DNA of 64,000 bases from Phoronis australis. Lineage: Eukaryota; Animalia; Phoronida. Where the stretch lies: positions 1,726,503 to 1,790,502 of the forward strand of contig NMRA01000003.1 in NCBI GenBank assembly GCA_002633005.1, in the 5' to 3' direction. Below are positions 26,401-64,000 of this stretch, one piece after another (position 1 is the first letter of the stretch; the number at the start of each line of letters is the position of its first letter). The notes under the pieces are model-generated. The model was not told where the DNA came from and ran no database searches. It saw nothing but the letters and a program-made list of their open reading frames with translations. The translations under genes and the position numbers were made by a program.

Positions 26401-27635
26401 TATAATTCTATCACCAGTTGTCAATATAAAAATAGCCTGAACAACTAATAGCTTTATTATTTCAAAACTTACTTCCTCACTGATTTCCTTTAGTACACTT
26501 GGTTTCAGCTCCATGTTTTTGTACAGAGTTCCAATCACGATGCATTTTTGATTATGTTGTAATTCAAACAACTTCTTAACTGGAATATCCCCTGAAAACA
26601 ATAACTACCAGATAATAACTTTAAACAACAACATTCATTTCATAATTAGTCCATACCTCTGATGACTTCAAGAGGCACTAATGAAAACCACTATCCCACT
26701 AACACCAGACTTTTGAGGGTCAACCTCATTTTGTTACACACCACTAGAGTAGTAACCGTTGTGAAGCTTATATCAATGTGTAGAGTGCTTGAACAGCAGG
26801 TGCATGTAAAATGTGAGAATCAATTGACAATCACTTTGACTGTTGCAGCCGTGAAAAATAAGTTGTTGCAACTGACAGCTGGAGAAATAATACAGTATTT
26901 GAAAACAAGTTTTAAATTTGTTGACATCAGTCTAGGTTATAGTAGTTTTTCATATAAAACACATCTAATTCACGGCATTTGTTGAATGTCGGTTGGACTG
27001 TTTCTAAATATCGTTTAGTGTCACGTGCACTGATTACAACATAACCGGGCACTAGTCGGTTATAATGGACCCTGACTTAGACAACCAGTTTCATCCACTA
27101 AATAACGTCCGTTATTCAGTTATTGCCTGGTTCTCTAAATCAGGGTCCCTTATATCCAACTTGTGCCCATCACTGCTGGATTACGTGTGATTATCCGATG
27201 AATGCAAACAATGATATGAACTATGTAAAAATTGGTTTGCCAACTTTCTCCCCTTGCTATCTCCATCAGATTGATAACGATACGATCATAACCCGAGTTC
27301 CCCATCACACGCGAAATCGTGAAACTCAACCCACAGCGCGGGAGCGTAACGAGTTGGCATGTATATGGAACTGAAATGTACAATCAGATTCTGTCAATTT
27401 ACTGACCCCATTTGTGTTTGGCAGCGACTTCAAGAAGTGGCCGCGTACTAGCCAATCTAGTTGCGTAGAGATGAGCATACTGTCTCCGGTAACTTCTTTC
27501 TTTCAAGACAAAACGTGAGGAAAGATTTTCGTATTTTGATGAACAACGAGCGAACGTTGTAACACTTCCATCGGGTTTGGAAAGTAGTTTTCCAGTCGAC
27601 GACGAAGATGAAGTCAGCTCGGGCATCATTTTCAT
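14493..27635 (-). CDS. POLD2: DNA polymerase delta subunit 2, ~471 aa, 10 coding exons
   Basis: Exons 27635-27407, 26591-26473, 25834-25711, 24905-24785, 22895-22700, 22145-22065, 21695-21538, 20242-20115, 17072-16971 and 14650-14493 are all GT-AG and total 1416 nt in frame. Motifs: QYAHLYATRL, GTLYK.MELKPSVL, LILEDELQRIKL, LPQQPLHPCMFP, GTSGQN, HLAPTAPDTLGCYP, CPHVYFAG. The start could also be the ATG at 27629 or 27626. Confidence 0.97.
14980..15680 (-). mobile_element. Degenerate copy of the array-bearing Helentron-like element
   Basis: Starts ACAAGAGCAATGTA...TGCACCCAC and contains eroded ~140-bp monomers (e.g. CCATTAGGGGGCAC near 15355). Confidence 0.5.
15722..15820. repeat. Minisatellite 33 bp x3
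   Basis: TGCACTATTCACATTG(G/A)ACTGACCACTGGTGTC repeated three times. Confidence 0.95.
18088..19334 (-). mobile_element. Helentron-associated (DINE-1/HINE-like) non-autonomous element, ~1.25 kb
   Basis: One end has the palindrome ACTTGGCGGAA-GAA-TTCCGCCAAGT next to an A-rich tract. The other end has the subTIR ACTTGGCGGAA and a CGCTC-GGAG-GAGCG hairpin. No TSD; inserted in A/T runs. A highly similar inverted copy lies at 62592-63827. Confidence 0.8.
20281..20944. mobile_element. Old TIR element with probable TAA/TTA target site (Harbinger/Zator-like)
   Basis: Imperfect TIRs AAGTTAAGTAGGACCTTATCAAC / GTCGATAAGGACCTACGTAACCT. Related fragments occur near 50000-50760 and 58900-59130. Confidence 0.5.
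22980..24680 (-). mobile_element. Array-bearing Helentron-like element (same family as 3602-5216)
   Basis: Same terminus ACAAGAGCAATGTAGAGCATTGAAATGCGCCCAC followed by ~140-bp monomers with CCACTAGGGGGCA-type motifs. The right boundary is approximate. Confidence 0.65.
27047..27168. repeat. Fold-back MITE, near-complete 122-bp palindromic copy
   Basis: GGGCACTAGTCGG..GACCCTGA..AACCAG pairs with CTGGTT..TCAGGGTC..CCAACTTGTGCCC. Confidence 0.7.
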
Positions 27636-28129
27636 TTAATACAAACGTTATTTACAAACTGTAGGGTTCTATAGCATAGTAAAATGCAGTTAAATCGTGA
27701 AGTAAATACGTAAACACTCCCGAACATTGAATGAAAGCTTTTCCCGCGATTTGCAACAAGTACATCCGGTTTTGCGTGCCCTCTGGCGAGTATTGCTGAA
27801 AAATAAACAATAGCAACTTCCTGTGGGTGGATTATCTTGTTCACTTGTTGATTGATAGATAAGTCGGGTTGATAAAGTGAAATGCACATTCACAGACAAC
27901 CAGAGCATCAGTTTTCAATGGAAATGTCACATTAGGTTAGGTGCTAACACTTACAAGCTTAATAGGAACCGGAATCCTTTGCTAACGGCTTCGACCGAGT
28001 TGTCCAGTGCTCACGGTGTGGGTTGCAAACTTGCGGCGTTGGGAGCCTGTGCGGTGGCAAGTTATGAACTAGTAGGCCTACTTGACTTTGGAATGTTTTA
28101 AATTTCATAATTGCATTGAGTCGTACACC
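27636..28129. promoter_or_regulatory. Putative bidirectional promoter of POLD2 and the 7TM gene, with E2F and ETS-like sites
   Basis: Divergent ATGs are ~495 bp apart. TTTCCCGC (E2F consensus) at 27740-27747, ACTTCCTG near 27816 and ACCGGAA near 27968; locally CpG-rich. Confidence 0.6.
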
Positions 28130-31032
28130 ATGGATGGTATGCAGCATAGAGGTACACAAAACGAACCTGGTGCATCGTCTATCGCAGACAGTGGAAGTGG
28201 AACCCTGTTTGGTTCCTCCCGGAGGTTAGTGACTGTCAGTGTTTGTTGTTGCACAACACTTTACTGTTTAAACAATTAAATGTCAACCACAGTTAAGTCA
28301 AAATCACTCTATTTAAACTTGAAAAGTAGAAATAATCCATCAAGTTTGCGGTGGGATATCTTGCCTTAAATCGTAGATGCATATAACTGCAGTCCTGGTG
28401 GGCCTAGTGGGGTCTTTTCTTTTTAGTTGAAATCGAACTCGCAGTTATTTTTGTCATTGTCAATTCTACTTTGTTCAAGTTCAAGAAAGGAGTCTATATT
28501 AATTGTTCTGCGCTTGAGTGTGTACTGGCTCGTATGAATAACTTATCTTGATGACTCCAACATAGTTCGAGACCGGACTTGAAATTCAAGTTTATGCTAG
28601 AGTACTCAAGTTTTTATGGGAAGTTAACAGCAAAACTCTCAGTGGCAGGTCTAGAATATCATAAGGAAGGGTCCAACATTTTGTTACGGGCAATTGCGCA
28701 AAGCACAATTTCATGTGCGCAACCAGCCTGAAAGATGGGGGGGGGGCTCGAATTTTTTGGACCCTTCTACTAAAAAGCAAACGGAGGACTAAAAAAACGA
28801 GGAAAATGATTGCGCAGGTCGTTTGAGTCGGAATCTTGCAATCGGGTCTGAGACCTCCCCCTCAGCCTAGTGTTAATTTCCGGGGTTAATTAATGAACTC
28901 AATATTTCTTCACGCTCTTGCTGTTTTATTTTTTTGCTGCAGCCAAGGGGGTGACTGGTCTCCCCCAAATCCGCCTATGAATCTAGAGGTCATCAGGTGC
29001 AAACTTGGACTAGACATTCATATGTGCATTTATCATAATGTACTGGAGACAGAATAGTAGAAGCTTATCTTGAGTTTGCACAATTTAGAATAGAAATGTC
29101 AAAACAATTTTGTTCTACGGAGGTTTTGATTACAAAGCTCAGACCACTGCCCTGCCATCATGTCAAGTAAAACTAGGAGCACATATGTGAAAGTTTTGCC
29201 ATATATTGTTGTATTTAAAAATTTGTTTTTGTGTCTCAGAGAGCTTCTCTTGGTCAATTTGATTACTGAGACTGCTTGTTCTTAAGTTTATTGACAAATC
29301 AAATTGTAACTTGACGTCTTGATTATGTGTTTATGTTGCTATTGAAGTTCCATAAGCAGGCTTCCCACATTGTTAGGTGAAGTGGGGCTGACCTCTGTTG
29401 ACAAAGGAATGTTTGTGTGTGTCTCAGTGAACGATTCTGCCCAACACTCGACGGCATTGCAAAGCGCAACTACTGATAAGAGCTCGCCTTCCTGAGAGCA
29501 ATACTATATATAAACATCACAAAAATGTCAGTTGACTTGCAAGATATTGTCAGCTTGGTTAAATCTGTATTAGGAGTCTTTAAGCAAAAAAATTCCTCTC
29601 AGAATTTGTGATTTTCTTGCATTGATTTGAAGGTTTCTGTGTGACCTCATCATTCAAGCAGCTCAATCTTTTCTGCAGAAGTTCTGTCTGCATTGAAACT
29701 ACAAGTCATAAAACACCTGGTCTTGATGGATGTTGTCCATGGTGGATTATAGTGTGGTTCTCATTGAAAAAATCAACCTCACTTTTGTGATTTTGCTCTT
29801 GTGGAAATTTGTAGCCATGAACACTCAATGGCAATAGAATATAATTACTCATTCACTCACTAATGTGCCATCATATAGCATAGTAAGTTGCTTTAACAAT
29901 GACCTTCTTGTATAGTCAATATACTGTCTCCTTACTAGTTAACAATACTGCTGTAGCTAGAATCAATTAATGGAATCTTTTATCAATGGTACATTTGAGA
30001 AAAGACAAAAACACAAACTAATCATGAATTCAATTTGAAGTTTTTAAAAGAATTTCTCTTCATGATTAAATATTTCTCCTGTTAAGCCTTACAAGAAAAT
30101 AAAATTTAACTTGTTGACCATATTGTGTGCTGAATCATGGGCGGCGCCATTGGGGGCTAGGGGGGCTATAGCTGTCACTTTTTTCAGTGCTGCGCCATCC
30201 ATGGTTGAAAGGCGGTGCTCCACAGGGGGGCTGGGGGGACTTTAGGCACCCACTTTTTCAGTGCTGCACCGCCCATGTGAATTGGTTACATTTTACCAAC
30301 AATAAATATTAGTTTAAAGCTGTAGATTTTGTACCCCCAAAAGTGCGCATGGCGTAAGTTGTTATTTGTAATTGAGGACTATCAGTGTAGGTCATATTGT
30401 ATAGTCCAAGTGAGGTTTCAACTTGGTCCCTTACTTGCCCTCTTTTGCGTTGCCGTAATAAGGGAAACATTCCTGTGATTATTTTTTGTGAACCCGTTGG
30501 CGATGGTCCTGGACCCGCATCTTCCATGTTGGCAAGTTTCTCTTTGACGAATATTCAGTTGATGATCTATACCTTTTATACTTACACAAAGTATCGAGGC
30601 GCCTCCTAGACTTGTTACACAATGATCTGTAACCTTTTCTCTTCTCTCTTCTCCATTTCTTTGTGTTTTGGGGACCTTCTTATTAGCGATCGAAAACCTT
30701 TAGAAAGTCTCCTAATTAAAGTTCTCAATAGTTAAGCATTGTATTACGTCTAAATGTAAATAAATGTGCCTCTCCCTCTCCATTTGCAGAGGAGTGACAA
30801 TAGAGGGATCCAGTTCCAGACACTTTATGAGCTTCAAAGACATTCCAGAGGACATGTTACCACAACCTGACATGTATGATGAGAGCTGCGCGCCAACTTC
30901 GGAAGAAATCCGCAAATACAGCACAAAGCAGTCTGATCAATTATCTGGATGGCGTTGGATCTTACTCGCAAAGTCTCTTGCCATAAAAACACACGAAAAT
31001 GACAAACTTGTACCCGGTCTTATGTTGTATAT
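28130..31032 (+). CDS. First copy of exon 1 and the start of exon 2 of the 7TM gene, cut off by an N gap
   Basis: Exon 28130-28224 and an exon starting at 30790 match 31821-31915 and 34467 onward. This is the copy attached to the promoter. Confidence 0.7.
30136..30277. mobile_element. 142-bp MITE with 5-bp TSD (duplicate at 33813-33954)
   Basis: TIRs CATGGGCGGCGC / GCACCGCCCATG flanked by TGAAT on both sides. Confidence 0.75.
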
Positions 31033-31738: not shown

Positions 31739-31820
31739 TGTGCGGTGGCAAGTTATAAACTAGTAGGCCTACTTGACTTTGGAATGTTTTAAATTTCATA
31801 ATTGCATTGAGTCGTACACC

Positions 31821-34800
31821 ATGGATGGTATGCAGCATAGAGGTACACAAAACGAACCTGGTGCATCGTCTATCGCAGACAGTGGAAGTGGAACCCTGTT
31901 TGGTTCCTCCCGGAGGTTAGTGACTGACAGTGTTTGTTGTTGCACAACACTTTACTGTTTAAACAGTTAAAAGTCAACCACAGTTAAGTCAAAATCACTC
32001 TATTTAAACTTGAAAAGTAGAAATAATCCTTCAAGTTTGCGGCGGGATATCTTGCCTTTAATCGTAGATGCATATAACTGCAGTCCTGGTGGGCCTTGTG
32101 GGGTCTTTTCTTTTTAGTCGAAATCGAACTCGCAGTTATTTTTGTCATTGTCTATTCTACTTTGTTCAAGTTCAAGAAAGGAGTCTATATTAATTGTTCT
32201 GCGCTTGAGTGTGTACTGGCTCGTATGAATAACTTATCTTGATGACTCCAACATAGTTCGAGACCGGACTTGAAATTCGAGTTTATGCTAGAGTACTCAA
32301 GTTTTTACAGGAAGTTAATAGCAAAACTCTCAGTGGCAGATCTAGAATATCACAAGGAAGGGTCCAACATTTTGTCTCGGGCAATTGCGCAAAGCACGAT
32401 TGCATGTGCGCAACCAGCCTGAAAGATAGGGGGGGGCTCGAATTTTTTGGACCCTCTACTAAAAAGCAAACGGAGGACTAAAAAAACGAGGAAAATGATT
32501 ACGCAAGTCGTTTGAGTCGGACTCTTGCAATCGGGTCTGAGACCTCCCCCTCAGCCTAGTGTTGATTTCTGGGGTTAATTAATGAACTCAATATTTCTTC
32601 ACGCTCTTGCTGTTTTATTTTTTTGCTGCAGCCAAGGGGGTGACTGGTCTCCCCCAAATCCGCCTATGAATCTAGAGGTCATCAAGTGCAAACTTGGACT
32701 AGACATTCATATGTGCATTTATCATAATGTACAGGAGACAGAATAGCTTATCTTGAGTTTGCACAATTTTGAATAGAAATGTCAAAACAATTTTGTGCTA
32801 CGGAGGTTTTGATTACAAAGCTCAGACCACTGCCCTGCCATCATGTCAAGTAAAACTAGGAGCACATATGTGAAAGTTTTGCAGTGTATTGTTGTATTTA
32901 AAAATTTGTTTTTGTGTCTCAGAGAGAGCTTCTCTTGGTCAATTTGATTACTGAGACTGCTTGTTCTTAAGTTTATTGACAAATCAAATTGTCACTTGAC
33001 GTCTTGATTATGTGTTTATGTTGCTATTGAAGTTCCATGAGCAGGCTTCCCCGCATCGTTAGGTGAAGTGGGGCTGACCTCTGTTGACAAAGGAATGTTT
33101 GTGTGTGTCTCAGTGAACGATTCTGCCCAACACTCGACGGCATTGCAAAGCGCAACTAGTGATAAGAGCTCGCCTGCCTGAGAGCAATACTATATATAAA
33201 CATCACAAAAATGTCAGTTGACTTGGAAGATATTGTCATCTTGGTTAAATCTGTATTAGGAGTCTTTAAGCAAAAAAAGAATTTGTGATTTTCTTGCATT
33301 GATTTGAAGGTTTCTGTGTGACCTCATCATTCAAGCAGCTCAATCTTTTGTGCAGAAGTTCTGTCTGCATTGAAAATACAAGTCATAAAACACCTGGTCT
33401 TGATGGATGTTGTCCATGGTGGATTATAGTATGGTTCTCATAGAAAAAATCAACCTCACTTTTGTGATTTTGCTCTTGTGGAAATTTGTAGCCATGAACA
33501 CTCAATGGCAATAGAATATAATTACTCATTCACTCACTAATGTGCCATCATATAGCATAGTAAGTTGCTTTAACAATGACCTTCTTGTATAGTCAATATA
33601 CTGTCTCCTTACTAGTTAACAATACTGCAGTAGCTAGAATCAATTAATGGAATCTTTTATCAATGGTACATTTGAGAAAAGACAAAAACACAAACTAATC
33701 ATGAATTCAATTTGAAGATTTGAAAAGAATTTCTCTTCATGATTAAATATTTCTCCTGTTAAGCCTTACAAGAAAATAAAATTTAACTTGTTGACCATAT
33801 TGTGTGCTGAATCATGGGCGGCCCCATAGGGGGCTAGGGGGGCTATAGCCTCCACTTTTTTCAGTGCTGCGCCATCCATGGTTGAAAGGCGGTGCTCCAC
33901 AGGGGGGCTGGGGGGACTTTAGGCACCCACTTTTTCAGTGCTGCACCGCCCATGTGAATTGGTTACATTTTACCAACAATAAATATTAGTTTAAAGCTGT
34001 AGATTTTGTACCCCCAAAAGTGCGCATGGCGTAAGTTGTTATTTGTAATTGAGGACTATCAGTGTAGGTCATATTGTATAGTCCAAGTGAGGTTTCAACT
34101 TGGTCCCTTACTTGCCCTCTTTTGCGTTGCCGTAATAAGGGAAACATTCCTGTGATTATTTTTTGTGAACCCGTTGGCGATGGTCCTGGACCCGCATCTT
34201 CCATGTTGGCAAGTTTCTCTTTGACGAATATTCAGTTGATGATCTATACCTTTTATACTTACACAAAGTATCGAGGCGCCTCCTAGACTTGTTACACAAT
34301 GATCTGTAACCTTTTCTCTTCTCTCTTCTCCATTTCTTTGTGTTTTGGGGACCTTCTTATTAGCGATCGAAAACCTTTAGAAAGTCTCCTAATTAAAGTT
34401 CTCAATAGTTAAGCATTGTATTACGTCTAAATGTAAATAAATGTGCCTCTCCCTCTCCATTTGCAGAGGAGTGACAATAGAGGGATCCAGTTCCAGACAC
34501 TTTATGAGCTTCAAAGACATTCCAGAGGACATGTTACCACAACCTGACATGTATGATGAGAGCTGCGCGCCAACTTCGGAAGAAATCCGCAAATACAGCA
34601 CAAAGCAGTCTGATCAATTATCTGGATGGCGTTGGATCTTACTCGCAAAGTCTCTTGCCATAAAAACACACGAAAATGACAAACTTGTACCCGGTCTTAT
34701 GTTGTATATCTTAACTCTTTTCACTGGCTTTTCATATGCCGCATCCAAAACCTGGTTTTGTGTGTACGATATCAAGAGTGCGGAAACACCTTCTACTGTG

Positions 34801-37800
34801 TTTACAGGCACCGTCGATATCGCCATGGCATTGTTTTGGGTTTCATCTGGAATATACGCGCATTCATTGGCTGGGGACCTGTTCAGTAACCCCAGGTTTT
34901 GTAACAGTGTGCGCATGCACTCGAAGATGTTGTTTGGAGTTAGTGCATTGAAACTGACGCTACTTCTGGCTATTGCTGCGATGGTTGTTGATATTTGGAG
35001 AAATTATGAAAATCTGAGTAGTTCCACTTGTTACAAAGTGAGTGTGACGCCCATCATCTGTAAATTCATGTTCATCTCGCGAGTGTCTTTTTCATTCGTT
35101 GCGTGTGTCTGGAATCTGTTGTGTGCCAGTGTCTTATTCTCCGTCGTCAGGACCCACACAATAGGTATATGGACTTTGTTACTGATTATGGTCGATTTGA
35201 TGTAAAACTTATCTCCAATCTATTCTAATTTGGCATTCGGCTTATTTTACTATATTATGCAATATGCAGTTAAATTATGTTGATTAAATTTTATCTCTAA
35301 TGCTATAAAACTGGCATTAGTTGGTTCCTGGAATAATCTATCTAGATTTTATCTGGGGAAATTGGATTGATCTCATGGTCCAAGTTCACAAACTAGTTCA
35401 ACCATGCTTTGTCCAAGTTAGCAAGTTTTAGTGTTACAATGGTCCTAATACAGCTTTCTGTTTGCTGTACCATCAATCCAACTTTAAATGTTGTTAACAG
35501 GGTTTGGCACAGTTAGCTACACGGTATATTTATCGTTTAAGAAAGAAATCAACTGACTTATGAAATTTGAATATTCTGATTTAAAAAATGAAGGTTTTTT
35601 CACTGAGGTCTTATATTTTGTGGTTATTCAAAAACAAACATGATATCAGAATCCACGTGACATCAAAAGACTCAATGAGATGTCAGGGATGCTCGTGGCA
35701 CAGTGGATAGAATCGCGCTAAGTTCTTCATTACTTAACAAAAAATGTTTATAAGAGATTGTCTGTCCAAATCGCATAACGATAATAATCCTTGTTATTTT
35801 ACATCAGCATGCATGCTATTTATATGCTATTTCTAATTTTTGTTTGTAAGTGCTGCGGAGATTCATTAAGGAACTTGAAAAAGACGGTTTGTTGTTTGAA
35901 CTGGGATGGGCCAAAAGACGTGAACATCAGCTTACCAGACAACTGCACGTCACATCTATATCAGAGGGTAGGTCCTGCATTATCAAACTACGTCAGGTGT
36001 TGTATTCAAGCTTTGCAGGTGTATTAGTGTTTACAGAAATATTGTTTTACATTGTACTAACTCAAAAGCCTTTTTCTCTAATATTTTCCATTTCGATTCT
36101 GCCCAACAACCTTGTAGCACCACTTTTCCTTATTTTGAATAGTCTTTGCAACTTTTGTACTATAATACATATGTTATAACGTTTCATTATTCAATCTAGA
36201 TTATCACCGGGCCATGTTAGATAAAACACACCGTTTTATAGACTCTGTGGCACAAATACTCCCTAATACTATAAAGAGGGTGTATTTACCACCTGAATAT
36301 ACAGGTATAATTGCATGTGAACCTTCGAAGAATGGAAAGATGTGGTTGTAAAAGTATTAGGGTGCATGTGGCAGACAGTTCAGTAGGTCTTCACATCCAA
36401 AATAAAGTTTGGCACTCAATATGGTGAGTAAAAATAAAGTTTGGCATGTATAAAAGTTTACTCATGTTATCATCATGGCTAGAAGTATGGTCACAAATTA
36501 ATATCATAATTTTTATTATTTGGAACATGGTAGTTGAACTTTAAAAAAGTGGAACAGTTTCGGCATAATCCCAATTGTGCACTTTATGTTTTGTCATGCA
36601 TTTGTGAACAGTTGGTCATTAACACTGCATTTGCATTATCTCCACACCTGTCATAGCATGGCACACCGTAACAACTGCTTTAGTGTTTTGTTGTTAAAGT
36701 GCATTATTTGTCAGTCTTTGTTTACTAAATCTGATCAGCCATTTTTGAGAATGTTGTTCCGAAGTTCCCGTATTTGGACATTTTTAGGGTGCTATATAAC
36801 CATAATGTTGATGGAACACTTTTTGATTGGTGCTCCATCATTAGCTAACATTCTGCTGTTTGAGGGTAATTGAAACGTTCGCTACCGTGCACATGTTTTA
36901 CTGGTGTGAAATTTTCCCAAAATCAGAGCCACCACTGGATTACTCACAACTGTTTGACGTGAATTCAGATTTTGTGACGCCAAAAGCCTGGCCTGATTTT
37001 TTTATTATGTTTTTTTCTGGATTTTTACGAGATGTAATTTAAACTTGACTTCACATTAAAGTATTTTAGTATTTTCAAATGTCATTTGTCAATAATGTTT
37101 TGCTTTCTTACGTTGACTGTACTTCGGGAGCAGGTTTTCTGTTATACAGAATTTGTTGAATGCACGACACTTTTCATTGTTCACGGTCTTTATTCCGTTG
37201 CGTTCATACTTTCTGAACAAAACTCTACTCTCTACTGAACATAGATACAGTAACTGACCTAGCGACATAATTAAAAGACACACGATATTTCGAAACATAC
37301 TTGTTTCATTCTTACATTGAAATACATGTTTGTGAGTGGAGTTGTCATTTTAATTTTATTTCAGGTGAATACCTTTGGGACGATGACATTTCTTCTTTTC
37401 CTTCCACGTTCGCGGAATCAGGAAATCCTTCAAACACAGTTCTTATCAACATTGATCATGAGAAGGGTTTTCCAAGAGAAGCCAGGCCTTCAAATCAGAT
37501 GTTGAGTACCAGCTATGATTCACAAAGACGCTTGGATTTGATGGATGATCCCTTCATGGAGAGTGCAGCGTCTCGAGCCCAACTGATGTCTGTACGTTAT
37601 ACATCTTTGGAAACTATTGTAGTTTTGGTTCGTGGTATTACCATGGAACAAATTGATTTGCTATAGTCAGTGGAAAGATTCGCTGCTGTTAATTTGACTC
37701 ATTACAGTACAAAGTTGGTAATTTTAGCTTGATTTTACTGAATTCATGACTGCTTTGTGGTAGTGGATTAACTAAGAACTTGAGAAACATATGTTTAAAG

Positions 37801-40800
37801 GACACCAAGTCCAATTTTGACCTATTTACAGAAATTAGAAACTACTTTTCCTCCAGTTCTCTGAAACAAAATAATGTTTTGTAACCCCTGACAAACGGCA
37901 AGCTGTTGGAACAAAATTTGAATACTTATTTCAAAATCTTGATGTGCAAACATGACCTACACTTTAGGCAACTTACATAAAAACTGTTAGAAAGAACACC
38001 CTCCAAGATTCACAATATCCAGTCTTTGACCTAAATAGTATGAGTTTTTTGCTGAATCGTGCGTTTATCATTCAAGTGTGACGCCAATGTTGCATTAGCA
38101 GTTGACAGAACAAGGATTGGCTGAAATCACGAAACAGGGTTTAGTATCCCTTTAAGAGTTCAAAACTAACAGCATAACAAAAGTCATTATTCATTGTAAA
38201 CACAATGTTCCATTTTACTGACTGTTGGGCATTGGTATTTTTTAGCCTTTGTTCATCTGAGGATGCTTTATAACCATTATAAACTTAATATTCTACAATA
38301 ATTTTCCTCTGTATTAAGGTCAAAGAAGTTGTTATTAAGAAAAGATTTGACTGTAGTTTCCGTCCTCTGTGTTGCAGGATGAAAGGTTCTTGAGCTTTGA
38401 AATACTTTGCAACTAAACATTGAGTCTGATTCTCAGCAACAGCAACTGTTTTGAAAGGAGATGTTTTAGACAATTTAGAAGTTGTCTAAGGCTTCATTAG
38501 AATCTGGTCACTTTAGCTGTAAAATAAAGATTTCTTACCTTTTGCAATTCCAGTGATGGTCGACTATATTTGTTTTCACATGATCGAGCATGTTGTTACA
38601 CATGTCACTGTTGTGCGTTGGTTTTCTAGAATGTCAGTATAAACAGTGGTGATGATGAGTTAATGACCATGCCCCTGGAGGGCCCTAGAGAGCCAGGCAT
38701 GTTGTCGGTCAACCAAATACTGGTCAGTTGGTGGAAACTACAGGTAATGAGTGCCGAAGGTGTTGTGAATAATCAAATTAACCAGATCAATAGCAGTATT
38801 AATCTTCAGAACTTTTTTGAATTTAATAACCGTATCTCAGTGGTGTAAGCAGGTTACCAACCAATTGTCCTGGCCGAACGGACTAATCTTGTAGATATCC
38901 ATTGTACAGTAGCTGTTTACTTCTAATCATAGACCTCTACAAAAGTACATGCTTGAACCCTCAAAGAACCCTCTCTTTAATCTGGTTGCTTTGACGTGTT
39001 TTTACCGACTTTTTAGCAAATCAAGCAAAACAATTCCACTTACCATGTTTAGTTTTTTAATACGCACTACCTCACTTAAGTTGTCACCTTCGGTACCATC
39101 ATAAAAGCAGTGACTTATCTTAGTGATGACTGATGCGGAACAAATATGGTATTTGTGTTTTGCATGTAATTGGTAGTGAAGGAAAGGACACGACTCGTGC
39201 AGACTGATGAATTAATTATCTGATGATGAGTTGAGCGAGGCGATATGTACTGCCTTTTGTGATGTCACAGAATGAACATGTGTAACTCCTGAATGAAAGC
39301 AGCAGGAAAATATTTTTGCATTGTGCATTATGGTCTTTTTTGATTAAAATCAAATTTTCAATTCATGAATTGAATTTGATTAAAATATTTCCATTGACTT
39401 CCTCTTAGTCTCTCAGATAGATCAGTTAGGTACCATTTGATAACAGCTACGTAATACACTAACAGTTTTGTAATTGTTTTGTGAAGTTTTTATTGTTCTT
39501 TTAAATCTGTTTTTGAATTCGCGCCCTTTATTTTAGACGTCTCCTCTGATGATCGAACATCCTGGAATTACTATAAGTGATGTATTCAAGTGAATTTGTT
39601 CTCCTGGTTACTGCTGTAAACATTGGTCAATTATTACACTGTATGTCAACACAAGAGCGTGTGTTGGTTTGAAATTGTAATAGGAAGATAGAACCTGCAG
39701 AAGTCAGTATTGTCTTCATCCATATTTGAATGTACGCAAGAATTTGAATGGTACTGATCTGCCTTTGCTGCGTATTATTTGAATTCATTGGATATTTTTT
39801 GTTGGTGTCACTGTATTAGTCTATACATGTATTCTGTTTCAGTGTCGGCTGCACATCTCTTCATTAGCCCTGCAGCGCTGGTTATTTGGTTGGATCGTGT
39901 TCATCACCGTCATCTCAGTGCATTACATTGTAATGTGGCTCAAGCAAGAGCCCACGGTGCTGGAGGTGTTTGAGTTCGTCATACCCATCCTCTTGCTACC
40001 TCTACTGTGCTCGGCATATGCTGAAGTCAACTATGAATGTTCACGTGTACCAAGGGTAGGGAACTTTGTCAGCTGTGTTACAGTCTTCATAACTTATTAT
40101 GTTGCCACCATAATTTTGCCCATTATATACTGAAGTTAACAAAGAATATTTGCATGTTACAAGGCCCCAGTTTTGTAAAAAGCAACTGGACAAAATGCAT
40201 ACCATTGCCCCATGATGATAACCAATGGTTGGTGGTTTACCCAATCAAGACTTGCCACTGTAGCTTTAAAGTCTTCTCATAATCTCCTCATGTTCGTTAT
40301 TAATTTTCTCCATCATTCCTGGGGTGACTACTGCAATGGTGAATTATGGCATTAGGTGCTACATCTCATTTCCCCACTCACAACTATGACTGATTCTTAC
40401 CATTTGGGATTACAATAGCCACTTACCACAGCACTTAAGCTATGTTGCATAAGACTTCAAAATTATCCGCTGGATAAGTTTGATTGTTGCATGATGTCAG
40501 GTGCATTATTCAACAATAACTACATGGCGCGTGATAATGCGAAGTCATTGTTGCTATACGGCGTATAACGTTATGCAACTGGGCCCAGGACTTTTATCAC
40601 TGGCTTCATCTGTTTGGGGATTATAGGGAACAGAGATGGGGGCAGTGATAACTGGTGCCTGTTGGCGGCGACATTCTGCCCCACCCATTTTGACACTGCA
40701 GACTATAAATACTAAATCGGTGTGAAAATTGAACCTTTTCATTGTTTGAAACACAAAAATCAGCAAACTGCAACAGAAGAAAAGGGAAATAATCGCATTG

Positions 40801-43800
40801 CAACTGCTGTTCCTTTATTGATATGTTCCAACCTGCCTGAGCAACATAATGGAATGGCTTAACTTGCGTACATAGTTCTGCTTATCAGAGTGGTATTAAT
40901 AATCTCACTCTAGAGTGCAGTCTTATGTTGGAATGATTATTTATGGGATGTCCTTTAAACAAAATGGTGAAAGGTGTGATTACAGAAAGTTACCTGTCAT
41001 AGTCATATATTGAAGCCACTAGCCTAGTGAAAGATGTGTTTGAAAGAGGAAACAATTAATATATAAACCTGTCCATTCAGAAATTTATACTTGTAGTGAC
41101 AATTGAACAGTGTTTCTGTTTTTATGCATCTCCTTTTTGCATAAATGGGTGCTTGCAGCTGTCATTAACTGCGTGTCCATCATCTACCATCCACCTCTTT
41201 CTCTCCCGACCACAGTTGGATTTGAATTTATGAAAATTTGTGGATAAGTTTCTGTTATGTCGTGTGGAGAGGGGAGTGAAGAAGTCGTCTTTACTCGAAT
41301 AATACTTTATTGCAGACTTTTGTATGTTTTTGCAATTAGGACTAAATGCATATGAACTGTTTGGTAAGTGTTATGTAATAAACCATTCTAAGTGTGCCAT
41401 ATAAGGTAAGTGTAGTTCCAGTAAAACCACGTCGCTATTACAGTTTCTACCAGAAAGACTGAGAACAGAGCCTGCCGTATTTCAGACTTATCAGTCCAAT
41501 TAGTTCTGCTCAGTGGGAATTTTAATACTTTGGTGTTTCGTTTTGGAGTCTGCCTCTCCATCTGTTTGAAGAGCCATGTTGAAATTTCTCATTGTTATTG
41601 GGGATTGTTGGGTTGATGTTGATTTTTGGATGGATTAGACTACTGCTGTGCCCTCTAGTCAGTTTTAGTTTTTGTGACTTCTTGTCTGCCAAGAAATATC
41701 TTTATATTTGACAGATGTGTTTCAAATATGTTTGCCGTTAGTATATGCGAGCACCCATTTGTGTTCAGATGGATGTATTGCGCCCTGTAGTGGCAGATTT
41801 AATTTTTGAAATCAGTCTTATTCTGCCAGACCACTTGAGTTGCCGGTATGGTTTTATTAAAACTAAAATGGCCTTTTCTGTTGATGTTTGTTCAAATCTC
41901 CAAAGTGCATCCCTGTAGTGAGTATCATATTTTTGACACTCATTTTCTGCAAAATCTTTTGAAATTTTTGTAATATGTTTCCAAGACCTCCCCACCTGGG
42001 AGGAAGGATGCCTGTACCATCTGAGAGGGAAATGTATTAGTTGAGGGGAAAATCCTCCCCTTCCTTCTTCCCGGTGACCACCTATTCCGGCAATGCTTCA
42101 AATAGCAAAACTAACTAACCTGAAAGGAAATTTTTAATTGCTTCATGGTGAATTTTGGGCCTGGTGAACATTACATGATTTTTTAAAATTTCTCTTAATA
42201 GGGGAATGAGGGCAATATTCAGCCTCAAAACCAAGGCTTTGAGGGAGCCTGGTTTCTGTTAACAAGATTATTGCACATTCCCTCATGATTTTTCAGACTA
42301 GTGTAATTTGTGCTGTGTGAGGCATTTTTAGGTTTAGTAGTGCTGGTCATTAATGGAAAGTTTAATTATAGAGAGTACCTCTTTTATTTTTCTCATTCTT
42401 CATGCACATGTTGAATGCATATCACTGCTCTGTATTGTTGAAACATCACTGCCTGTATCAGATACTACTGATTTGATGTCCATATCAGTGAAGAACTTTT
42501 TGTTTTATTCAGGCGATTGTACCAATTAGTGAACGACTGCCTCTACTGAGACAGATGCTGCAGCAGCCCTTACAACTGACGGTATGTGTACACTGAGTTT
42601 TTATTACTATTTGCTCTCATTCAGTGGCTATCCCAGACAGTGGTAGAGATAGAGCAATAAAATCTTTCTCTGTTACTTAAATGTCGTTTGTTAATATAGT
42701 TATTGTAATAAAAATGATCCAAGCATAAATGCACATATTTAGCCCCATGCATCCATGTAAAGCTGTATCCTACACCCTGAATTAGATGAATGTGCCTATT
42801 TGTAGTAACAAAAATAGAATTCTATCTCTGTGAGGAATTTGCGGTATTACCGTAGATCCAATGTTATGAGTAAAAGGCCTAATTTACTTTTCATTTTGGC
42901 CTATTAAAAGGGCGAAATGCATCTTTAAACAATGCGATTGGTAGTGTTTTGGTTTACCAAAATTGTTTTCATCTGTTACTTTTCTCCACTTTCGTCGTAA
43001 TTATTTAAGCAAGACAAAATACAAACGAATGGAGCTTACATTTGACTCTTGTGTATACAAAAAATATTTAATGTGCTTGGGTTTTCCTCAAGATGGTTGT
43101 AACTGAATTAGGATACTGATAGCCATGAGGCAACTTCTCCACTAACATTTGGGGTTATGTTGCCCCAACTCCTAAGTGAGCTTAAAGGCGAAGGCAACCT
43201 TTTTTCATGTCATTTTGAGCTAAAATATGGTTGGTTGGTTATCCTAGACATATTTTCCACTTAATTACAGCTTTTCGTAATTTTATTAATTACTCGTCCG
43301 CTACTCAGGAAGTGACGTTTTAGGAGACAAGCGTTTCCCGCCACTTGGTTTTGCGTTGAGTTTACCGTGCGAATCTGTTCTATTCTACTTTTGTTTTGTG
43401 CTGTTTTACAACAATTGTCGCCATCACTTTCCATCGGCGAGTATTCTGCGGCAAGATAGGTTAATAGAGAACTCAACTACGTTGGATTTAGGGATTGTTT
43501 AGTGTGTTGTAAGCTGAAAATGGCTGGAGTCGGTGACCCGTATCACAGTGACAGTAGTGTGAGTGACGGAGACCTTGTTCACAGCAGTGGTGACGAGGAA
43601 TTTTTTCACGGACATTCAGTGGGTGGGTACATGTTTGAGCCCGAGTATAACGAGGCAGAGTACGCACAGGCACAGGCAGCTGTTGAGAGAAACGAGGCGG
43701 CTACTGAGGACAGACGTGGTGACACATCTTGGTGCAAATGCACTGTGTGCGTTGTTATGCCTACCTCAATGGAATGCTTGTGCTGTTCNACGGTAATTCT

Positions 43801-45702
43801 CGACTGCTTTGTACGTTGCGTGGACGGGTAACGCTGCGTTCTTCACACGAACGAGCCAAGTACGGCGAAGTGTGTCATCCATCGGAAAGCGATGCAAAGG
43901 TTCTCCCAAAGCGCGCGTGAGACGATAATTAGTACATCCCGGTACGCAGCAACAGTGTGGCGTGTTGACTGACTAGTAAATGAAAGCAAACGAGGACGGA
44001 ACTTAACACAACCGAGGTAGAACAATGACTGACTCGGCAGCTCTCACAGTCAGACTATATGAAAAGAAATTGACGCGAAATGCTTGCCTCCTAAAACGTC
44101 ACTTCCGGAGTAGCGGACGAGTAATTAACAAAATCCCGAAAAGCTGTAATTAAGTGGAAAATATGTCTAGGATAACCAACCAACCTTATTTTAGCTCAAA
44201 ATGACATGAAAAAAGGTTGCCTTCGCCTTTAAGCCAGACCGAGACTAACCCATCGTAGTCGATTCACAAATTAATGTTTGTGGCTTAGCTGCGCATTGGT
44301 CATTTGCCTTTATACTCATTTTTCGTTTTTGAGTTAGAAAATCTCATGTTAAACAGGCGCCTTGGTTTACGACCCCAATTATCTCATCAGTCAAGCTCAT
44401 GAATAGTGACCAGCTCACTTTAATCTGTGAAGGCACCAGTAAGCTTTTGATGTGCTGCAGAATTTGGTGGATACTTTGGGGTAAACAGCGCACACTTTCT
44501 CGTTCACTTGCGTGCTATTCCTGTTAGATCAAGATTTGCCCAATACCTCTAGTAAAGCTCAAGTGTTTATGTTACTGTCTGCCATTATTCACTTCTCAAG
44601 GTAGACTTTTTAATATTGTGGTTAGATGGCTAGTTCATGAGTCAATTGCATATTGTCCAGTTAATCAAAAAGACGTGCAGACTTTCCTGCACAAATCCTT
44701 ACCACTCGAATATTGACAGCAATTCCAAGGATAACATCTCATGGCAGTATCCACAGGCAATTCATTTGTAGACTGTCATAAACTACCACACTGGACCATG
44801 AAACAAATATGTATCAATTTAGTGTGAGACACGTGAAAATTATACCTAGCTATCAGTCCGATTCACACAGTCATATTTCTTCCCAAAATATAAATCGAGT
44901 TGCATATGTACATCATTTCAATTTAGATCAGGAAACTTTTTTACAAGAGCAATCGTATGCACATTGTATATTCCAAGGGAATATTTGTCCTAAGCTTTTT
45001 TACAAGAGCAATCGTATGCACATTGCATTTTCCAAGGGAATATTTGTCCTAAGCTTTTTACAAGAGCAATCGTATGCACATTGCATTTTCCAAGGGAATA
45101 TTTGTCCTAAACTTTTTTACAAGAGCAATCATATGCACATTGCATTTTCCAAGGGAATATTTGTCCTAAGCTTTTTACACGCTGCTTCTGCCATCAACCT
45201 GCATGGAAAAGTACTGAGCATCCAGTCTAATATTGTACACATATTTACACACCTGGTTTGACAGTAGGAAGTGGCCATGGGTCTCATTAACCAAGTCGCC
45301 TGGAACTACTTCCATACCACACGAGGTCCAGAGGTACATGAATTGCCCGTTTTCGATTTAAGTGAGGCTATGAAATGCAAGATTTCTATAATTTGGTGTT
45401 GAAATTTTTTTTCAAATCCAAGTACTTCTGAACATAAACATTGAAAGTACATTCAAGCAGGTGCTCCAATTGCTCATTGCACCCATATTTGCCCAATTTC
45501 TCATTTCAGATGTTCGATTCACCCTATCACCTGTACGTACATTTCTTTGATGTTTGGTTCACCTGCCACCTATATTGACCATTTCTTTCAGATGTTTGGT
45601 TCACCCGTCAACTATTCAAGCATCGCCACAGTGATCACTGCTGTAGGGATAGCGTTTGCAACCAAGATCATATTCGACGAGTTCTCCAAGAGTCCATTAT
45701 AG
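31821..45702 (+). CDS. Seven-transmembrane protein, gustatory-receptor-like / DUF3537-like (7TM ion channel superfamily candidate), 547 aa, 8 exons
   Basis: Exons 31821-31915, 34467-35164, 35851-35967, 37365-37591, 38630-38743, 39843-40055, 42513-42581 and 45592-45702 total 1644 nt in frame with GT-AG introns. There are seven hydrophobic segments and a long polar loop between TM4 and TM5. The C-terminus is ERLPLLRQMLQQPLQLTMFGSPVNYSSIATVITAVGIAFATKIIFDEF. The exon chain is well supported; the family assignment is inference. Confidence 0.75.
37799..38151. mobile_element. Degenerate TTAA-flanked MITE (Kolobok-like ends)
   Basis: TTAA-AGGACACCAAGTCC ... GGGTTTAGTATCCCT-TTAA; the TIRs are imperfect. 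Confidence 0.45.
41500..41810 (+). repeat. Eroded monomers of the ~140-bp array family in the opposite orientation
   Basis: GTGCCCTCTAGT and GCGCCCTGTAGTGGCA are ~130 bp apart, with TTTTGGAGTCTGCCTCT matching the reverse complement of the monomer. Confidence 0.45.
43520..43788 (+). pseudogene. N-terminal fragment of a KolX / P2X7 C-terminal (ballast)-like cysteine-rich protein
   Basis: An acidic N-terminus is followed by GYMFEPEY and RRGDTSWCKCTVCVVMPTSMECLCC, the W-C-x-C-x-x-C-x-x-M-x-T-x-x-E-x-x-C-C signature. It breaks off at the N at 43789. Confidence 0.8.
43790..43963 (-). pseudogene. THAP zinc-finger N-terminus of a transposase (start codon reads ACG); not in the ORF track
   Basis: Translates (T)PHCCCVPGCTNYRLTRALGEPLHRFPMDDTLRRTWLVRVKNAALPVHATYKAVENYR, i.e. 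THAP C-x-V-P-G-C, HRFP and RR..W motifs. It is truncated just before the expected C-x-x-H-F. Confidence 0.8.
44937..45178. repeat. Minisatellite ~59 bp x4
   Basis: TTTTTACAAGAGCAATCGTATGCACATTGCATTTTCCAAGGGAATATTTGTCCTAAGC repeated four times. Confidence 0.95.
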
Positions 45703-46161
45703 AGTACCAGATGGCACCTCAATCTCAATGATTTTCATATTTTTACAATATGCAATTTTACATACATCCTGTTAATTGTATTTATTGGATAAGGTTTATG
45801 AACTGTTCTTATTTTAAGTAACTAGTTTTGTAGTTGGAATTTTCCATACTTAACGATCATGTTGCCTAACATTTCAACGATTTTAATATTTTATGATATA
45901 TATGTAATTCTACATATATACTATTAATTGTATGGTTTGTTGGTGAAAGTTTGTGAATTGTCCTGAAAAATGTTTATGACTAGTTTAAATAACTGTTTTT
46001 GTGGGTGATTTGCACCTTATTTAATGACCATCTTATATAATGCCTCTTTATAAATTCGATTCAGGCAATGTCTTTCAACCGTTTCGAATGACCTGTCTCG
46101 CACAATAAAACGTTACTGTTAACATGTTTTTTTTGTGTATTTTCAACTTATTTTTTACATT

Positions 46162-49100
46162 TTAAATCATTCTCTTGAGAAGAGCATTAATGGCATCTTC
46201 ACGACAACCAAAGTCACCACCCTCGACAAAGTGGTTGTTCTTCTTTCTCCAACCACCGTTCGGAGTGTTGAGTTTGAAGGGCCACAGGAAGTTGGCTGCT
46301 TCTTTAAAGTTGGGTCCACACGTGAAGATCTCATGGATAAGGTCCTCCATACAGATGATGCCCAGTTTACCTAACAAATATAAACAGTAGGAATGAATAA
46401 ATAAATACGACTGCAGTGAAACCACTGAATACAAATTTAAAGCTTGGCAAAATGACACAACTGCAGTATTTGTGAAAGTTAAGGGAATAACCCAGTAAGA
46501 AAACTGACAAGAAATAACACTTAATCATTTGGCATAGTATTGATATACACCCACTGCATGCTCTGTAAATGGCAGAGATATAAGGGAGCTCAGTTTTTCA
46601 AACACAAGTTACAACTGTCCAAAATTTAGCAGTAATTGTACAGGAAGTTTTGGACTCGGTGGAATTTCACTTGATTTTTAGTATTTTTCACAGGGAACTG
46701 GGCTGATATTCCGCCCCACAACTGAAACACCTAGGGTCCCATCATAACGTTTGAACCATTTCACATCCACAGTGTAGGAGTTAATAATGGTGGCCAGACA
46801 CTGCAAAACTAAGTCTCGGGGTGTATGCTAATCTTACCCAGTTTTTTCTCTATGATGGCGTTGTCTGTCAAGGGTATCCTCTTGTGATCAACTTTACCAT
46901 AACCCCTCTTGTAAATGAGTTCACGCACAGATTTAAGATTTGGGTACCTAAGGAGTAAACAGGAAAATTCTGAATAAAAGATTCTCTTTTTAACATTCTG
47001 GTTACATAAACAACATGGCTGCTGCATTCATAATTTCACTTCACAGACCCAATAAACTCGGTTAGTTCACTGACTCACAAACATCACCCAACCACCAAAC
47101 ATAGTGCTAACTCGGAACATGACTTATGCACTCAGAACTTGTTCCCCGAGTCCTAAACATGGCTACCCGACTGTCCATGCTCCGGGTGGTATGTGCGCTG
47201 CGCAATTTCTTAGGATACGCAAGAAGTTTTTTGCAATCGGTACTGAAATGATTTCATGGGATCCATGATCTGTTATAAATGAAGGAACTACGTTTAAAGC
47301 CTATCTTGAATTGTAACACCTGTAAATTTGGTTCCAACAGTATGTTAAGAGCATTGCTCTGAGCCCACTAGTGCCATAAATTGCCTGTAACGAACTGTTA
47401 GGCGTATTGGCTTGCTCTTGTCTACGTAACCGTGAGAATCACCTTTTAATTCAAACAGCTGTGAACACCCGCACACAACGGTGTCCTATTCAGACTCCTA
47501 TTCAATACAACTGTTATCGGCCTTTTGTTGTTTGTGCTGGAATCTCGCGGTGACACAACATGGCACGAAATGGTAGCTTCAGGGCTTGGAATTTTGCGCG
47601 GAAACGCGATTTCCGCTTTTTTCAAATGTGCTTTCCGCTTTTTTTATAATATTTCCGCGTAAAAAAAAAATCGGATTTGATATAAAATTTCCGCGGCAAA
47701 TTCCTTTCTTACCGCGGCGTTGCAGACGACGTTCACCTCGAAAAGCGGAAGTTGCTCTTTATGTTTCGGAGGAACGTAAATTGTCAACATTGCCGGGGCA
47801 TCTGGGACAGCGTGGTGGGATTTTCAATGGCGTCTCGTGTTATTGTTAAGCGCGGCGACAAATACTACCGCTCTGCAGCCAAAAATGTGTNNNNNNNNNN
47901 NNNNNNNNNNNNNNNNNNNNNNNNNNNNNNNNNNNNNNNNNNNNNNNNNNNNNNNNNNNNNNNNNNNNNNNNNNNNNNNNNNNNNNNNNNNNNNNNNNNN
48001 NNNNNNNNNNNNNNNNNNNNNNNNNNNNNNNNNNNNNNNNNNNNNNNNNNNNNNNNNNNNNNNNNNNNNNNNNNNNNNNNNNNNNNNNNNNNNNNNNNNN
48101 NNNNNNNNNNNNNNNNNNNNNNNNNNNNNNNNNNNNNNNNNNNNNNNNNNNNNNTTAACCACAGGTGCTCGAATTTCTCGATGGCTAATAACCATATATA
48201 AGAAACATATGTTTTCTTAGTAATGAATGACGTTAGTGGTGATGGAGGAACAGATAAACTCAAGCGCCTGTGCAGTCTACCACAAGAACAAAAAAAATTA
48301 CGGGTGGTTGCATTTCAAACTTATTAAAAATTACGGGTGGTAGGCTGAAGAAATAAATGAAAAATATGGGTGGTGGGTGCGAAAAAAAGGTGCCTTCCCC
48401 CCCTCCCATACAGATTTTACTGGAACAGCCCTGATGGTGGTAACCTTTTTTTTTCTTTTTTTTAGTCCTCCCGATTTTTGTCGGGGAAAGGTTCACATTG
48501 ATCATTTCAAGGCTGGTTATCGGGCATGATTTGGGCCGTAAAAGTTTCAAAGTTTCCGCGTTTTTTGTCATTGGTCATTCCAAGCCCTGTAGCTTCCCCT
48601 GTCATCCGACAGGCTTAAATTTGCGTGATTGTACTCGCGTTTTCTTATATTACTAAGGCTTTGCTAGGGCTGTCTGGTTAGCCCAATACATCTTAAATCA
48701 CAAAATTCGCTGAAGTTAAGCTTGATGTAGGCGCCAGCCATATTGCTCAGGTAACCAGACATTGCAATTAGGATTCAATATCAGCAAACAATCAGATAAC
48801 TTACTCGTAGATGAACAGTCCTGTTTAACTGTCCCGCTAACTTATGCAATTCAGTTACCTATAGAACAATTTCCTCTTTACAGAGGTAGGAAAATACACA
48901 CAGTACAACTTACATAACAGATAGTCAGGCGATTTCGATTCAAGTTGAATACGAAATGTTACTTTTTGTATTCGCAATGCATGCAATCACCATTAAGTGT
49001 AACTGTAAATTTCAAAGTACTCTGGTTTCAACAACACCAACCAACTTTGAATCAACTTTGTGTAAAGTATGCTAGGCTACATCATCCTAACAACACCGAG

Positions 49101-60090: not shown

Positions 60091-62591
60091 GTACCATACT
60101 TGTGTTTGTAGTTTTCTCAAAGATGCTAATAATTTTATTGTCTCATTAAAACTGCGCCAGATAAACTAAACATGTTTAATCCGCAGACGACAATACAACG
60201 AGACAGAACCCAGAGGGTTCCTACCAACCACAGTCGTACGAATACCAATACAATGGCACTGTGAATATTTAATTTGTAGCAAGCGCCACCTAGTGACTTC
60301 CTGGAGAACTGTGTGTACAAGTATAATCAGGGATTAAAAAACAATTCATACATAAATTACGGTTTTAAAGAGAACACCTATACCGATACACTTAAAAACA
60401 AGTGTGAACTTACAAAAGTCCTAGTAATTCCAAGTATTATGGAATACGGTCCTTATTTGACAGTGAAATCAACAAAAAATAAAAACTGTGCCTTGTTTCG
60501 TTAGGATAACGATATGTTACTCATTTACATAAAAATAGTCTTGCAAAACAAGACTTTCGCGAGATTGTAATGGTAACTCGGGTTCTCAGATGGTTTTTGG
60601 CATACTGAATGATCTAGAGTTGTTTGTAAATTAGTACTTCATGTGCATATTCACAATTTAATGACGCTATGCATCTTTAAACATCTTCTGGTGTTTCATA
60701 GCCAAGTTTTTTCCTGAGGCCAAAAAGAAGTGCTTTGAGTTACCAATTTCTGACTGGACAATGGTGTTATGCCTAATTGAATTACACATAGTAAACATCT
60801 AGAGTGTCAAATTTCTCCAGAAACCAGTTTTCAGTGGAGAATTTCTCACTTACACTGGTCACCACTGGGAGGGGGGGGGAGCAGACAACTTTTATTATGC
60901 CTATTCAGCACTTGCTCTTTGTATTGATGTAGATCTGAACTAATGAAGTGGAAAGGTAATTAGCTAGCATTACTGTCTCAACAATGGTGGTTGTTTATTA
61001 CACTCAACTTGGTTTTTGAATTTGCACAGGGTTACACCTTGCAACTGCAGAACTGTGGAGAGTAGTTTTAACTTGGTACATTTTAGATATAACAAAATGA
61101 CTAAAAACTTAATTTGTATTTATCTTGACTAAGGGCCACTTCCCAAAGGAAAGGTGATTTTAAATATGTTTCATACCAGTTTTTGTTATTTCATTTTTAA
61201 AACTCCTGTCAACTTGTTTGTTTTTTCTTACTATCTGGGAACGGGTTGATAACTTTTTATTTTATTTTTAAACTTAAAATACCAAAACAGTGGTAGATTT
61301 TGTTCGCCAGCGAAACTTAATTAGTTTAGCTAATTGTGAACCCATCCATGAGCTTTCCAGATTACAGCTACACTAAGCAGTTCACAGCAAACAAAACTAT
61401 AGGAATCGTTAGTTTAAGTTTAATCTTTATTAGAACTCAAACCATGAAATATATACAAAAGTGCAAATATGGTGAAAGCCAAACTGAAGATTTGGAATCT
61501 CTGGACAATTTCAGTTGCACTGGTTACATAACTATTTTAGCTTTTTGTCGATCATAAAAAATGAAGAGTGGCCAGGTTATAAGTTAAGTACAACTGATTC
61601 CCAGTCAAAAATCTGGTTAAACAGGATTGAAAGAATGTTAAAAGAATAATCCATGTGATACTCTTAACTCTCATCAGCCTTGTTTGTAAGTCCACTGAGT
61701 ATATCAATGCGCACAGTCGTATATTTTCAATCGTATCCAATGTTTGTAGTTTTTAGCTTATCAGTTCATCGATTTTTAAAAGAGAAGACCATACTTGGTT
61801 GTTTTTTTTCAGATGAATACCGCCGTGGTGTTCGTTTTTAATGAAAGTTATTGGTGTAATGCATTTTTAAAATTCGGCAGTATGCACAGGCAGAGATGTT
61901 TTCTACAGTTCATGGATGGGTAATTACACCGTATTGGGTGTTGCTTGCACCGGACAATGCGGTCATCACAACTGTGTCTGATTCTGGCACCAAACTCCCT
62001 TTGATCCCGGTAAAAGCCACTTAAAAGGAAGGACAAGCGGTGAAAATTCTCATGTCTTTAGGAATGCACGACTTGAACAAGCATATTATTCACGGTATGG
62101 ATTGGTTGTCATACAAGACCCCATGCTGTGCATTGATGGCTATTTTTCAGTTCTTTCACTTCGCACTCCTGTGATGCCTTTCTGGTGGATTTTTTCTGAA
62201 TCTGATGTGGTTGGATTTGTCATAGGCTATCTGTAATATATCATCTATTTCTCATGAGACTTAGTGTTTTTGAATTCAAGATTTTCAGTGGTGACTGTTC
62301 TTTTGTTGGCTGATCAATCCTGGTCTTCTTGTTGAATGACCTGTGCTGTAGGCCGCATTTTTGTCCAATTGATACGGGATTGGGGAACAAACAAGCATCT
62401 CGAATGTTTGCATACGGTGCTACTCATCAGGCAGCCTTTACTATTTTTCTTTTTTTGAAGCCATGGCTCAATCAGCCATCGCTGAAGGCTCAATCTTGGT
62501 ATGTGAATAGATCTCACTAAGGCCTGTATGCTATCTGTATCTGGGTCACCTGCTTATGTGGGTTTGTCAAGCATGGTTTGTGTGTTCTTTA

Positions 62592-63827: not shown

Positions 63828-64000
63828 TTTTGTTTGTTCGCACGATACAGGTCGCAATTTTCGTCTGATCATCACAAAATTTACACATATCACGTACTTC
63901 CGGAAGTACAGGAAGCCTATTGTTTTTCGTCAAAATTGGATCCAAGATGGCGGCTGTGGTGGCCATTTTGTTTCCATTTAAAGGTTCAAATGCTTCTGGA
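63828..64000 (+). mobile_element. Diverged core of a related HINE-like element directly abutting the previous one
   Basis: TGTTCGCAC..TACAGGTCGCAATTTTCG...GAAGCCTATTGTTTTT...AAGATGGCGG repeats the core seen at 62650-62790. Confidence 0.65.

Follow-up and report, generated by a model that had tools for sequence, protein, structure and literature searches.

The stretch of DNA analysed here, referred to as the window, comprises 64,000 nucleotides of the phoronid Phoronis australis (GCA_002633005.1, contig NMRA01000003.1, positions 1,726,503 to 1,790,502 of the forward strand). It contains a gene on the + strand at 31821..45702 whose eight exons encode a membrane protein of 547 amino acids (aa). 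As judged from sequence, the protein belongs to an unnamed, low-copy family conserved across bilaterian invertebrates. The preferred reading, which we regard as rather likely, is that this family has the Class-A fold of the seven-transmembrane ion channels (7TMICs) and forms a probably tetrameric, ligand-gated cation channel. A preliminary description of the DNA had taken the gene for a lone divergent one; membership in a conserved bilaterian family, with 116 phmmer representatives, was the main point that it missed.

A conserved family of bilaterian invertebrates

The family was collected by an exhaustive phmmer search with exon 2 of the gene. At the cut-off of E 0.001 or better there are 116 representatives, 24 of them at 1e-30, and the full-length matches also align to the C-terminal half of the protein. 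The source organism was seen for 37 of the 116. The named members include lophotrochozoans (Lingula, Owenia, Paralvinella, Tubulanus, bivalves, gastropods and Argonauta), ecdysozoans (Priapulus, Limulus, a scorpion, decapods, a copepod, an ostracod, cockroaches and a cricket) and deuterostomes (five echinoderm classes and Branchiostoma belcheri). All are labelled 'uncharacterized', 'hypothetical' or 'unnamed', save for one automatic UniRef label as a G protein-coupled receptor (GPCR). No vertebrate, tunicate, nematode, holometabolous insect, cnidarian or non-animal protein stands among these 37 named rows, a sample that leaves absence unproven. A word-index search with exon 2 against longer proteins returned none of 1546 candidates, which reflects its limited sensitivity given the phmmer result, and a scan of viral contigs with the protein P0002 found no relative.

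Identity across phyla is 30-45%. A quick tree of 43 rows, built without bootstrap after removal of truncated models, isoforms and fragments, recovers the groups Mollusca (99), Echinodermata (100) and Arthropoda (98). The branch of the window protein is long and falls within a lophotrochozoan group that is not resolved; the nearest relative of the protein is Owenia (39%). Since Limulus, Patiria, Dreissena and Sinanodonta have two loci each, the family counts as low-copy and not as strictly single-copy. The intron positions are old and conserved within the family. Among the 31 models compared, precisely exon 7 is missing from records of Pinctada and Limulus, precisely exon 6 from two Patiria isoform records and precisely exon 3 from one Limulus isoform. 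The exon 2 donor coincides with the end of 24 of 34 homolog fragments from the N-terminal half (six from a single Mytilus cluster), and the three phase-0 introns after aa 417, 488 and 511 are likewise conserved.

Topology and predicted fold

Hydropathy analysis of the window protein gives seven runs, with peaks at aa 105-123, 143-161, 188-206, 241-259, 430-448, 455-473 and 521-539, and the predicted model of a relative, P0021, has seven long helices, in agreement with the seven-transmembrane (TM) architecture first described. The full fold was read from this P0021 model, the window protein itself being modelled for exon 2 only. The P0021 helices include lengths of 64, 46 and 34 residues, corresponding to a long TM4-TM6. 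The re-entrant helix TM0 is predicted at residues 49-59 in P0021 and at 53-62 in the exon 2 model. TM7 is split in P0021 into S7a (469-480), two short strands forming a hairpin, and S7b (494-518). The outer loops are short, as in the 7TMIC superfamily, the first intracellular loop (IL1) has ~20 aa and IL3 about 30-43 aa, and the loop between TM4 and TM5 of the window protein is polar and 168 aa long. The positive-inside pattern over 53 homologs predicts the intracellular N-terminus already proposed, together with a C-terminus outside, and a Cys pair in the second extracellular loop (EL2) is conserved.

The proposed place in the superfamily shared by the odorant receptors (ORs), the gustatory receptors (GRs), GR-like (GRL) and DUF3537 proteins is supported by the model of the relative, by structure comparison and by ESM Atlas matches, and a 7TMIC fold of the family is very probable on these predicted structures. 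The fold comparison shows a gap in Z, with 17.3-20.8 over ~320 residues against 9.5 or less, and GPCR rows in Foldseek have a probability of 0.11 or less. In the ESM Atlas, a C-terminal half gave named matches of the 7tm_7, Trehalose_recp and 7tm_6 type; the N-terminal half alone scored 0.90 or less and was uninformative. Foldseek with the exon 2 model of the window protein listed no OR or GR. A four-copy complex of the P0021 C-terminal half, predicted without an alignment, scored 0.01 (mark 0.32) and is evidence neither way.

The family would work in the manner of a GR or OR, but by sequence tests it fails as a GR/GRL, DUF3537 or PHTF protein. None of 40 proteins has any Pfam match at cut-off. 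The families 7tm_7, 7tm_6 and Trehalose_recp were found in 0/40 proteins, 0/38 members and 0/5 C-terminal halves, and PF12056 (DUF3537) in 0/38 members and 0/5 C-terminal halves. The special closeness to DUF3537 put forward in the preliminary description is thus not upheld, the ESM Atlas clusters of DUF3537 being level with those of 7tm_7 and DUF267 at 0.93. Its statement that the TYhhhhhQF motif is absent was correct, as the GR TM7 motif (T/S)Yhhhhh(Q/K/E)(F/L/M) occurs neither in the window protein nor in any of 53 homologs. Some weak matches were set aside. Five exon-containing open reading frames gave only chance matches to Pfam, CatSper2 in a profile search of PDB sequences was a low-complexity match in the acidic loop, and BRI3BP, matched below cut-off by 3/38 members and by 2/5 C-terminal halves, was noise from the hydrophobic pattern.

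Pore helix and proposed function

The anchor helices are the most conserved segments of the family, and the anchor is likewise reported as the most conserved part of the superfamily. In place of the GR motif, TM7b carries a family motif of the type (A/G)Fx(S/T)(K/R)hhhx(D/E), which fits 41 of 53 homologs. Small or hydroxyl residues (T524, A528, A532 and T535) form a stripe along one face of this helix, and acidic residues are common at the outer mouth. Conserved residues of the outer half include T115, W449, F462, P465 and the EL2 Cys pair.

By analogy with OR and GR biology, as set out in part of PMC12635824, four subunits (identical in the preferred reading, giving a homotetramer) would join at a cytosolic anchor made of TM4-6 and S7a, and the four TM7b helices would line a central pore. 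A ligand entering an outer pocket among TM1-6 would tilt TM7b and open the gate. The low copy number and the 30-45% identity across phyla suggest that the family serves one conserved task and is not a growing chemosensory repertoire; this task may be the sensing of one conserved ligand, an internal or environmental molecule. Since the GR gate motif is replaced by the family motif and the small/hydroxyl stripe, gating or selectivity probably differs from that of insect GRs. A ligand-gated cation channel is, on this analogy, a reasonably probable function.

The altered TM7b also lends itself to an improbable alternative, a channel of 7TMIC fold that is not ligand-gated or not cation-selective (for example a leak, pH-gated or organellar channel) with a pore changed by the Lys/Arg. 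Position 536 is K/R in 46 of 51 homologs and position 535 is S/T in 49 of 51, where the GR motif is hydrophobic, and the gene is expressed in all three bulk RNA runs examined. On a helical wheel, however, K536 points to 260 degrees, off the small-residue stripe at 140-220 degrees, and the acidic outer mouth also speaks against such a change.

A more speculative proposal, distinctly unlikely at present, is that the family is an uncatalogued urbilaterian 7TMIC lineage beside Gr/Grl, GrlHz and PHTF, kept in one or two copies from arthropods to amphioxus and with a rewired pore helix; its role would be that of a common subunit in the manner of Orco or of a single internal sensor that is conserved.

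The common-subunit role taken by itself, in which the protein would co-assemble with variable GRL or GrlHz receptors and aid trafficking and pore formation without a ligand of its own, is less likely still. It would agree with the low copy number, with the strong conservation across phyla and with the long IL2, also Orco's distinguishing feature in the part of PMC7746228 drawn on here. Possible partners exist, GRL and GrlHz loci coexisting in Lingula and GrlHz loci being present in Limulus, Penaeus and Branchiostoma. However, bulk RNA near POLD2 levels would be atypical of a gene confined to sensory neurons, and the outer-half residues named above show the conservation expected of a ligand pocket. 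Least probable by far is a convergent or incidental likeness of another helical membrane protein (otopetrin-like or GPCR), against which stand the Z gap, the low Foldseek values of the GPCR rows, the joint match of split TM7 with hairpin, TM0 and N-in topology, and the independent agreement of the language-model (ESM Atlas) matches.

Gene structure and expression

The gene is real and expressed. The protein was obtained by translating eight exons fitted by splice sites, and the spliced coding sequence of 1644 nucleotides ends in a single terminal stop. All seven introns are GT..AG with phases 2,1,1,0,0,0,0, in line with the first observation that the final four are phase 0. Three raw RNA read runs (X1, X2 and X3), matched by species label and with unlabelled tissues and small counts, provide the transcript evidence. 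All seven splice junctions occur in X3 and six of the seven each in X1 and X2; the junction reads number 33, 20 and 69, respectively. The gene model of the preliminary description was therefore right. In X1-X3 the first mates map to the - strand, indicating a + strand transcript.

Exon 1 (31821..31915) encodes a predicted disordered N-terminus (aa 1-32) and is followed by a phase-2 intron with junction reads in X1, X2 and X3. Exon 2 (34467..35164, aa 32-265) would contain TM0, TM1-TM4 and the EL2 Cys pair (C220/C230), and precedes a phase-1 intron. The cytosolic extension of TM4, a predicted anchor segment, falls in exon 3 (35851..35967, aa 265-304), and the disordered IL2 in exon 4 (37365..37591, aa 304-379), where the predicted local distance difference test score (pLDDT) is <50 for the loop in the model of the relative. 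In exon 5 (38630..38743, aa 380-417) IL2 ends and the cytosolic helix of TM5 begins. Exon 6 (39843..40055, aa 418-488) encodes TM5 and TM6 as well as the invariant anchor motifs QRW and ExNxE, exon 7 (42513..42581, aa 489-511) the S7a helix, and exon 8 (45592..45702, aa 512-547) the beta-hairpin, TM7b as predicted pore helix and the stop. All eight exons are on the + strand. Three degenerate tandem copies of the last acceptor with the opening codons of exon 8 occupy 45495-45625, and of these the listed RNA junctions use only the third (45592).

Intron 7 carries two repeats. An element of ~1 kb lies at 43180-44234; its terminal inverted repeats are 173 bp long (93%), and TTA/TAA stands at the element's ends. 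It has a P2RX7_C-like frame on the + strand (E 1e-4) and a THAP frame on the - strand (E 3e-6), and presumably resembles a non-autonomous transposon of the PIF/Harbinger type. Both strands have a high RNA depth and there are loose ends at 43788/43790 beside a single N, which indicates a multi-copy element probably collapsed here. A tandem array of ~59-bp units occupies 44933-45179.

The locus

Sequence 28048-31032 repeats 31739-34709 at 97.6% identity across a gap of 706 N, the upstream copy ending exactly at the gap. The second copy (28048..31032, + strand) contains exon 1 (ATG at 28130) and intron 1 together with the initial part of exon 2. None of 338 exon bases differs between the copies, as against 52 of 2551 intron bases. 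The 3-kb duplication probably consists of two uncollapsed alleles, an assembly artefact of high heterozygosity; a genuine tandem duplication is less likely, given that the copies adjoin the gap and all their differences fall outside exons.

POLD2 lies upstream on the - strand (matches to PF18018 and PF04042), and seven of its junctions are present in the RNA reads. As to the promoter shared with POLD2 in the preliminary description, only the upstream copy of exon 1 is near the POLD2 ATG, from which a head-to-head interval of 495 bp (27635..28130) separates it; exon 1 at 31821 is ~4.2 kb away as assembled. With the alleles collapsed, the two ATGs stand head to head, 495 bp apart. The ratio of junction reads between the gene and POLD2 is 0.36, 0.25 and 2.09 in the three runs, so the two genes are not tightly co-regulated. 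The gene is readily seen in bulk RNA yet is not locked to POLD2, and the argument from this neighbourhood to a broad non-chemosensory role is weak.

Downstream, a ribosomal protein gene (PF08079 match), which we take to be of the RPL7 type, lies tail to tail with the gene. In the 500 bp after the stop a single AATAAA/ATTAAA occurs, at 46104 (window 46104-46164), ~20 bp from 46126, at which numerous reads from the convergent ribosomal protein gene start; the 3′ ends thus abut. Elsewhere, a repeat of 1.25 kb is present in two inverted copies with 89% identity, at 18088-19337 and 62588-63829, and probably represents a dispersed mobile element.

Novelty and significance

The superfamily is already known; the family is apparently unnamed and is a well-supported conserved bilaterian lineage within it. 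It was not described in the literature found, and no paper was found for six of its LOC identifiers. The search of the PMC9998090 supplement covered 12 + 4 of 53 files (the four being 29, 30, 49 and 51), with files 4 and 49 covered in part. In the 7TMIC network name list (file 51) none of 10 accession or LOC terms of the family occurs, and Lingula (five rows) and Branchiostoma (two rows) appear under other loci. The family motifs are absent from the searched parts of files 49 and 4, bar two chance plant AYAEVN matches. According to the part of Himmel et al. (10.1101/2023.08.30.555482) used here, animals were not formally screened, and preliminary screens gave no obvious new animal-specific 7TMICs. 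Members could conceivably, though somewhat doubtfully, sit unlabelled in their PSI-BLAST set on Dryad (doi 10.5061/dryad.fqz612jz9). That the family is a distinct lineage is highly likely.

Functional knowledge of 7TMICs comes almost entirely from insect ORs and GRs, as stated in the same part of Himmel et al. (10.1101/2023.08.30.555482). Shrimp, cockroach, sea urchin, limpet and amphioxus have clear orthologues, which offer one gene per animal to study, and a conserved low-copy lineage makes an ancestral role of the channel fold testable. For chordates, which have mostly lost the superfamily, the family would mean one more lineage, in the lancelet. Dozens of proteins annotated as 'uncharacterized', those of farmed shrimp and molluscs among them, would gain a fold assignment. 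The superfamily itself is known, the function of this new branch is predicted only, and GrlHz is a comparable lineage described earlier. If the urbilaterian reading were true, the family would be a missing conserved handle on the role of these channels before insect smell and taste.

Comparison with known systems

The closest known systems are the insect GR, OR and Orco channels (BmGr9, 8vc1; A. pisum OR5-Orco, 8z9a; MhOR5, 7lic; DmGr43a, 8jm9). Identity to them is 7-11%, and the family lacks their TYhhhhhQF motif. Whereas the insect receptors are expanded and fast-evolving, the family is low-copy and conserved across phyla. Unlike theirs, its TM4-TM5 span is disordered and 80-275 aa long. The preliminary description counted a long TM4-TM5 loop as a shared hallmark of the superfamily, a view that does not survive comparison. 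In the parts of the sources consulted, PHTF has a long IL1 (10.1101/2023.08.30.555482) and DUF3537 a long IL3 (PMC7746228); Orco is also marked by a long IL2, like the family (PMC7746228).

PHTF and the Class-B Euk7TMICs resemble the family as a conserved low-copy 7TMIC lineage of animals. Their long IL1 between TM2 and TM3 contrasts with the short IL1 of the family. DUF3537 (PF12056) belongs to the same superfamily and also has a degenerate TM7 motif, and one supplement passage shows likeness by eye in the stretch from S7a to the hairpin. However, the long loop is IL3 in DUF3537 but IL2 in the family, whose IL3 is short, and DUF3537 is a plant group whereas the named members of the family are all animals.

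GrlHz is similar in being a conserved, non-expanding Class-A lineage, without a Pfam-style GR signature and present in lancelets; in the fly its gene is broadly expressed (Benton and Himmel 2023, PMC9998090, in part). The family is nevertheless set apart from it by loci and motifs, as far as sequence can tell. The two occupy separate loci in Lingula (LOC106174721/31 for GrlHz against LOC106152049 for the family), Limulus (LOC106468871/LOC111088082 against LOC106470240/LOC106474369), P. vannamei (LOC113800691 against LOC113828531) and B. belcheri (LOC109485082 against LOC109472973). In the GrlHz FASTA (PMC9998090, supplement file 29) neither HTIG nor QRW, both motifs of the family, occurs. GrlHz has a Drosophila member (CG3831), in contrast to the named matches of the family, none of which is holometabolan.

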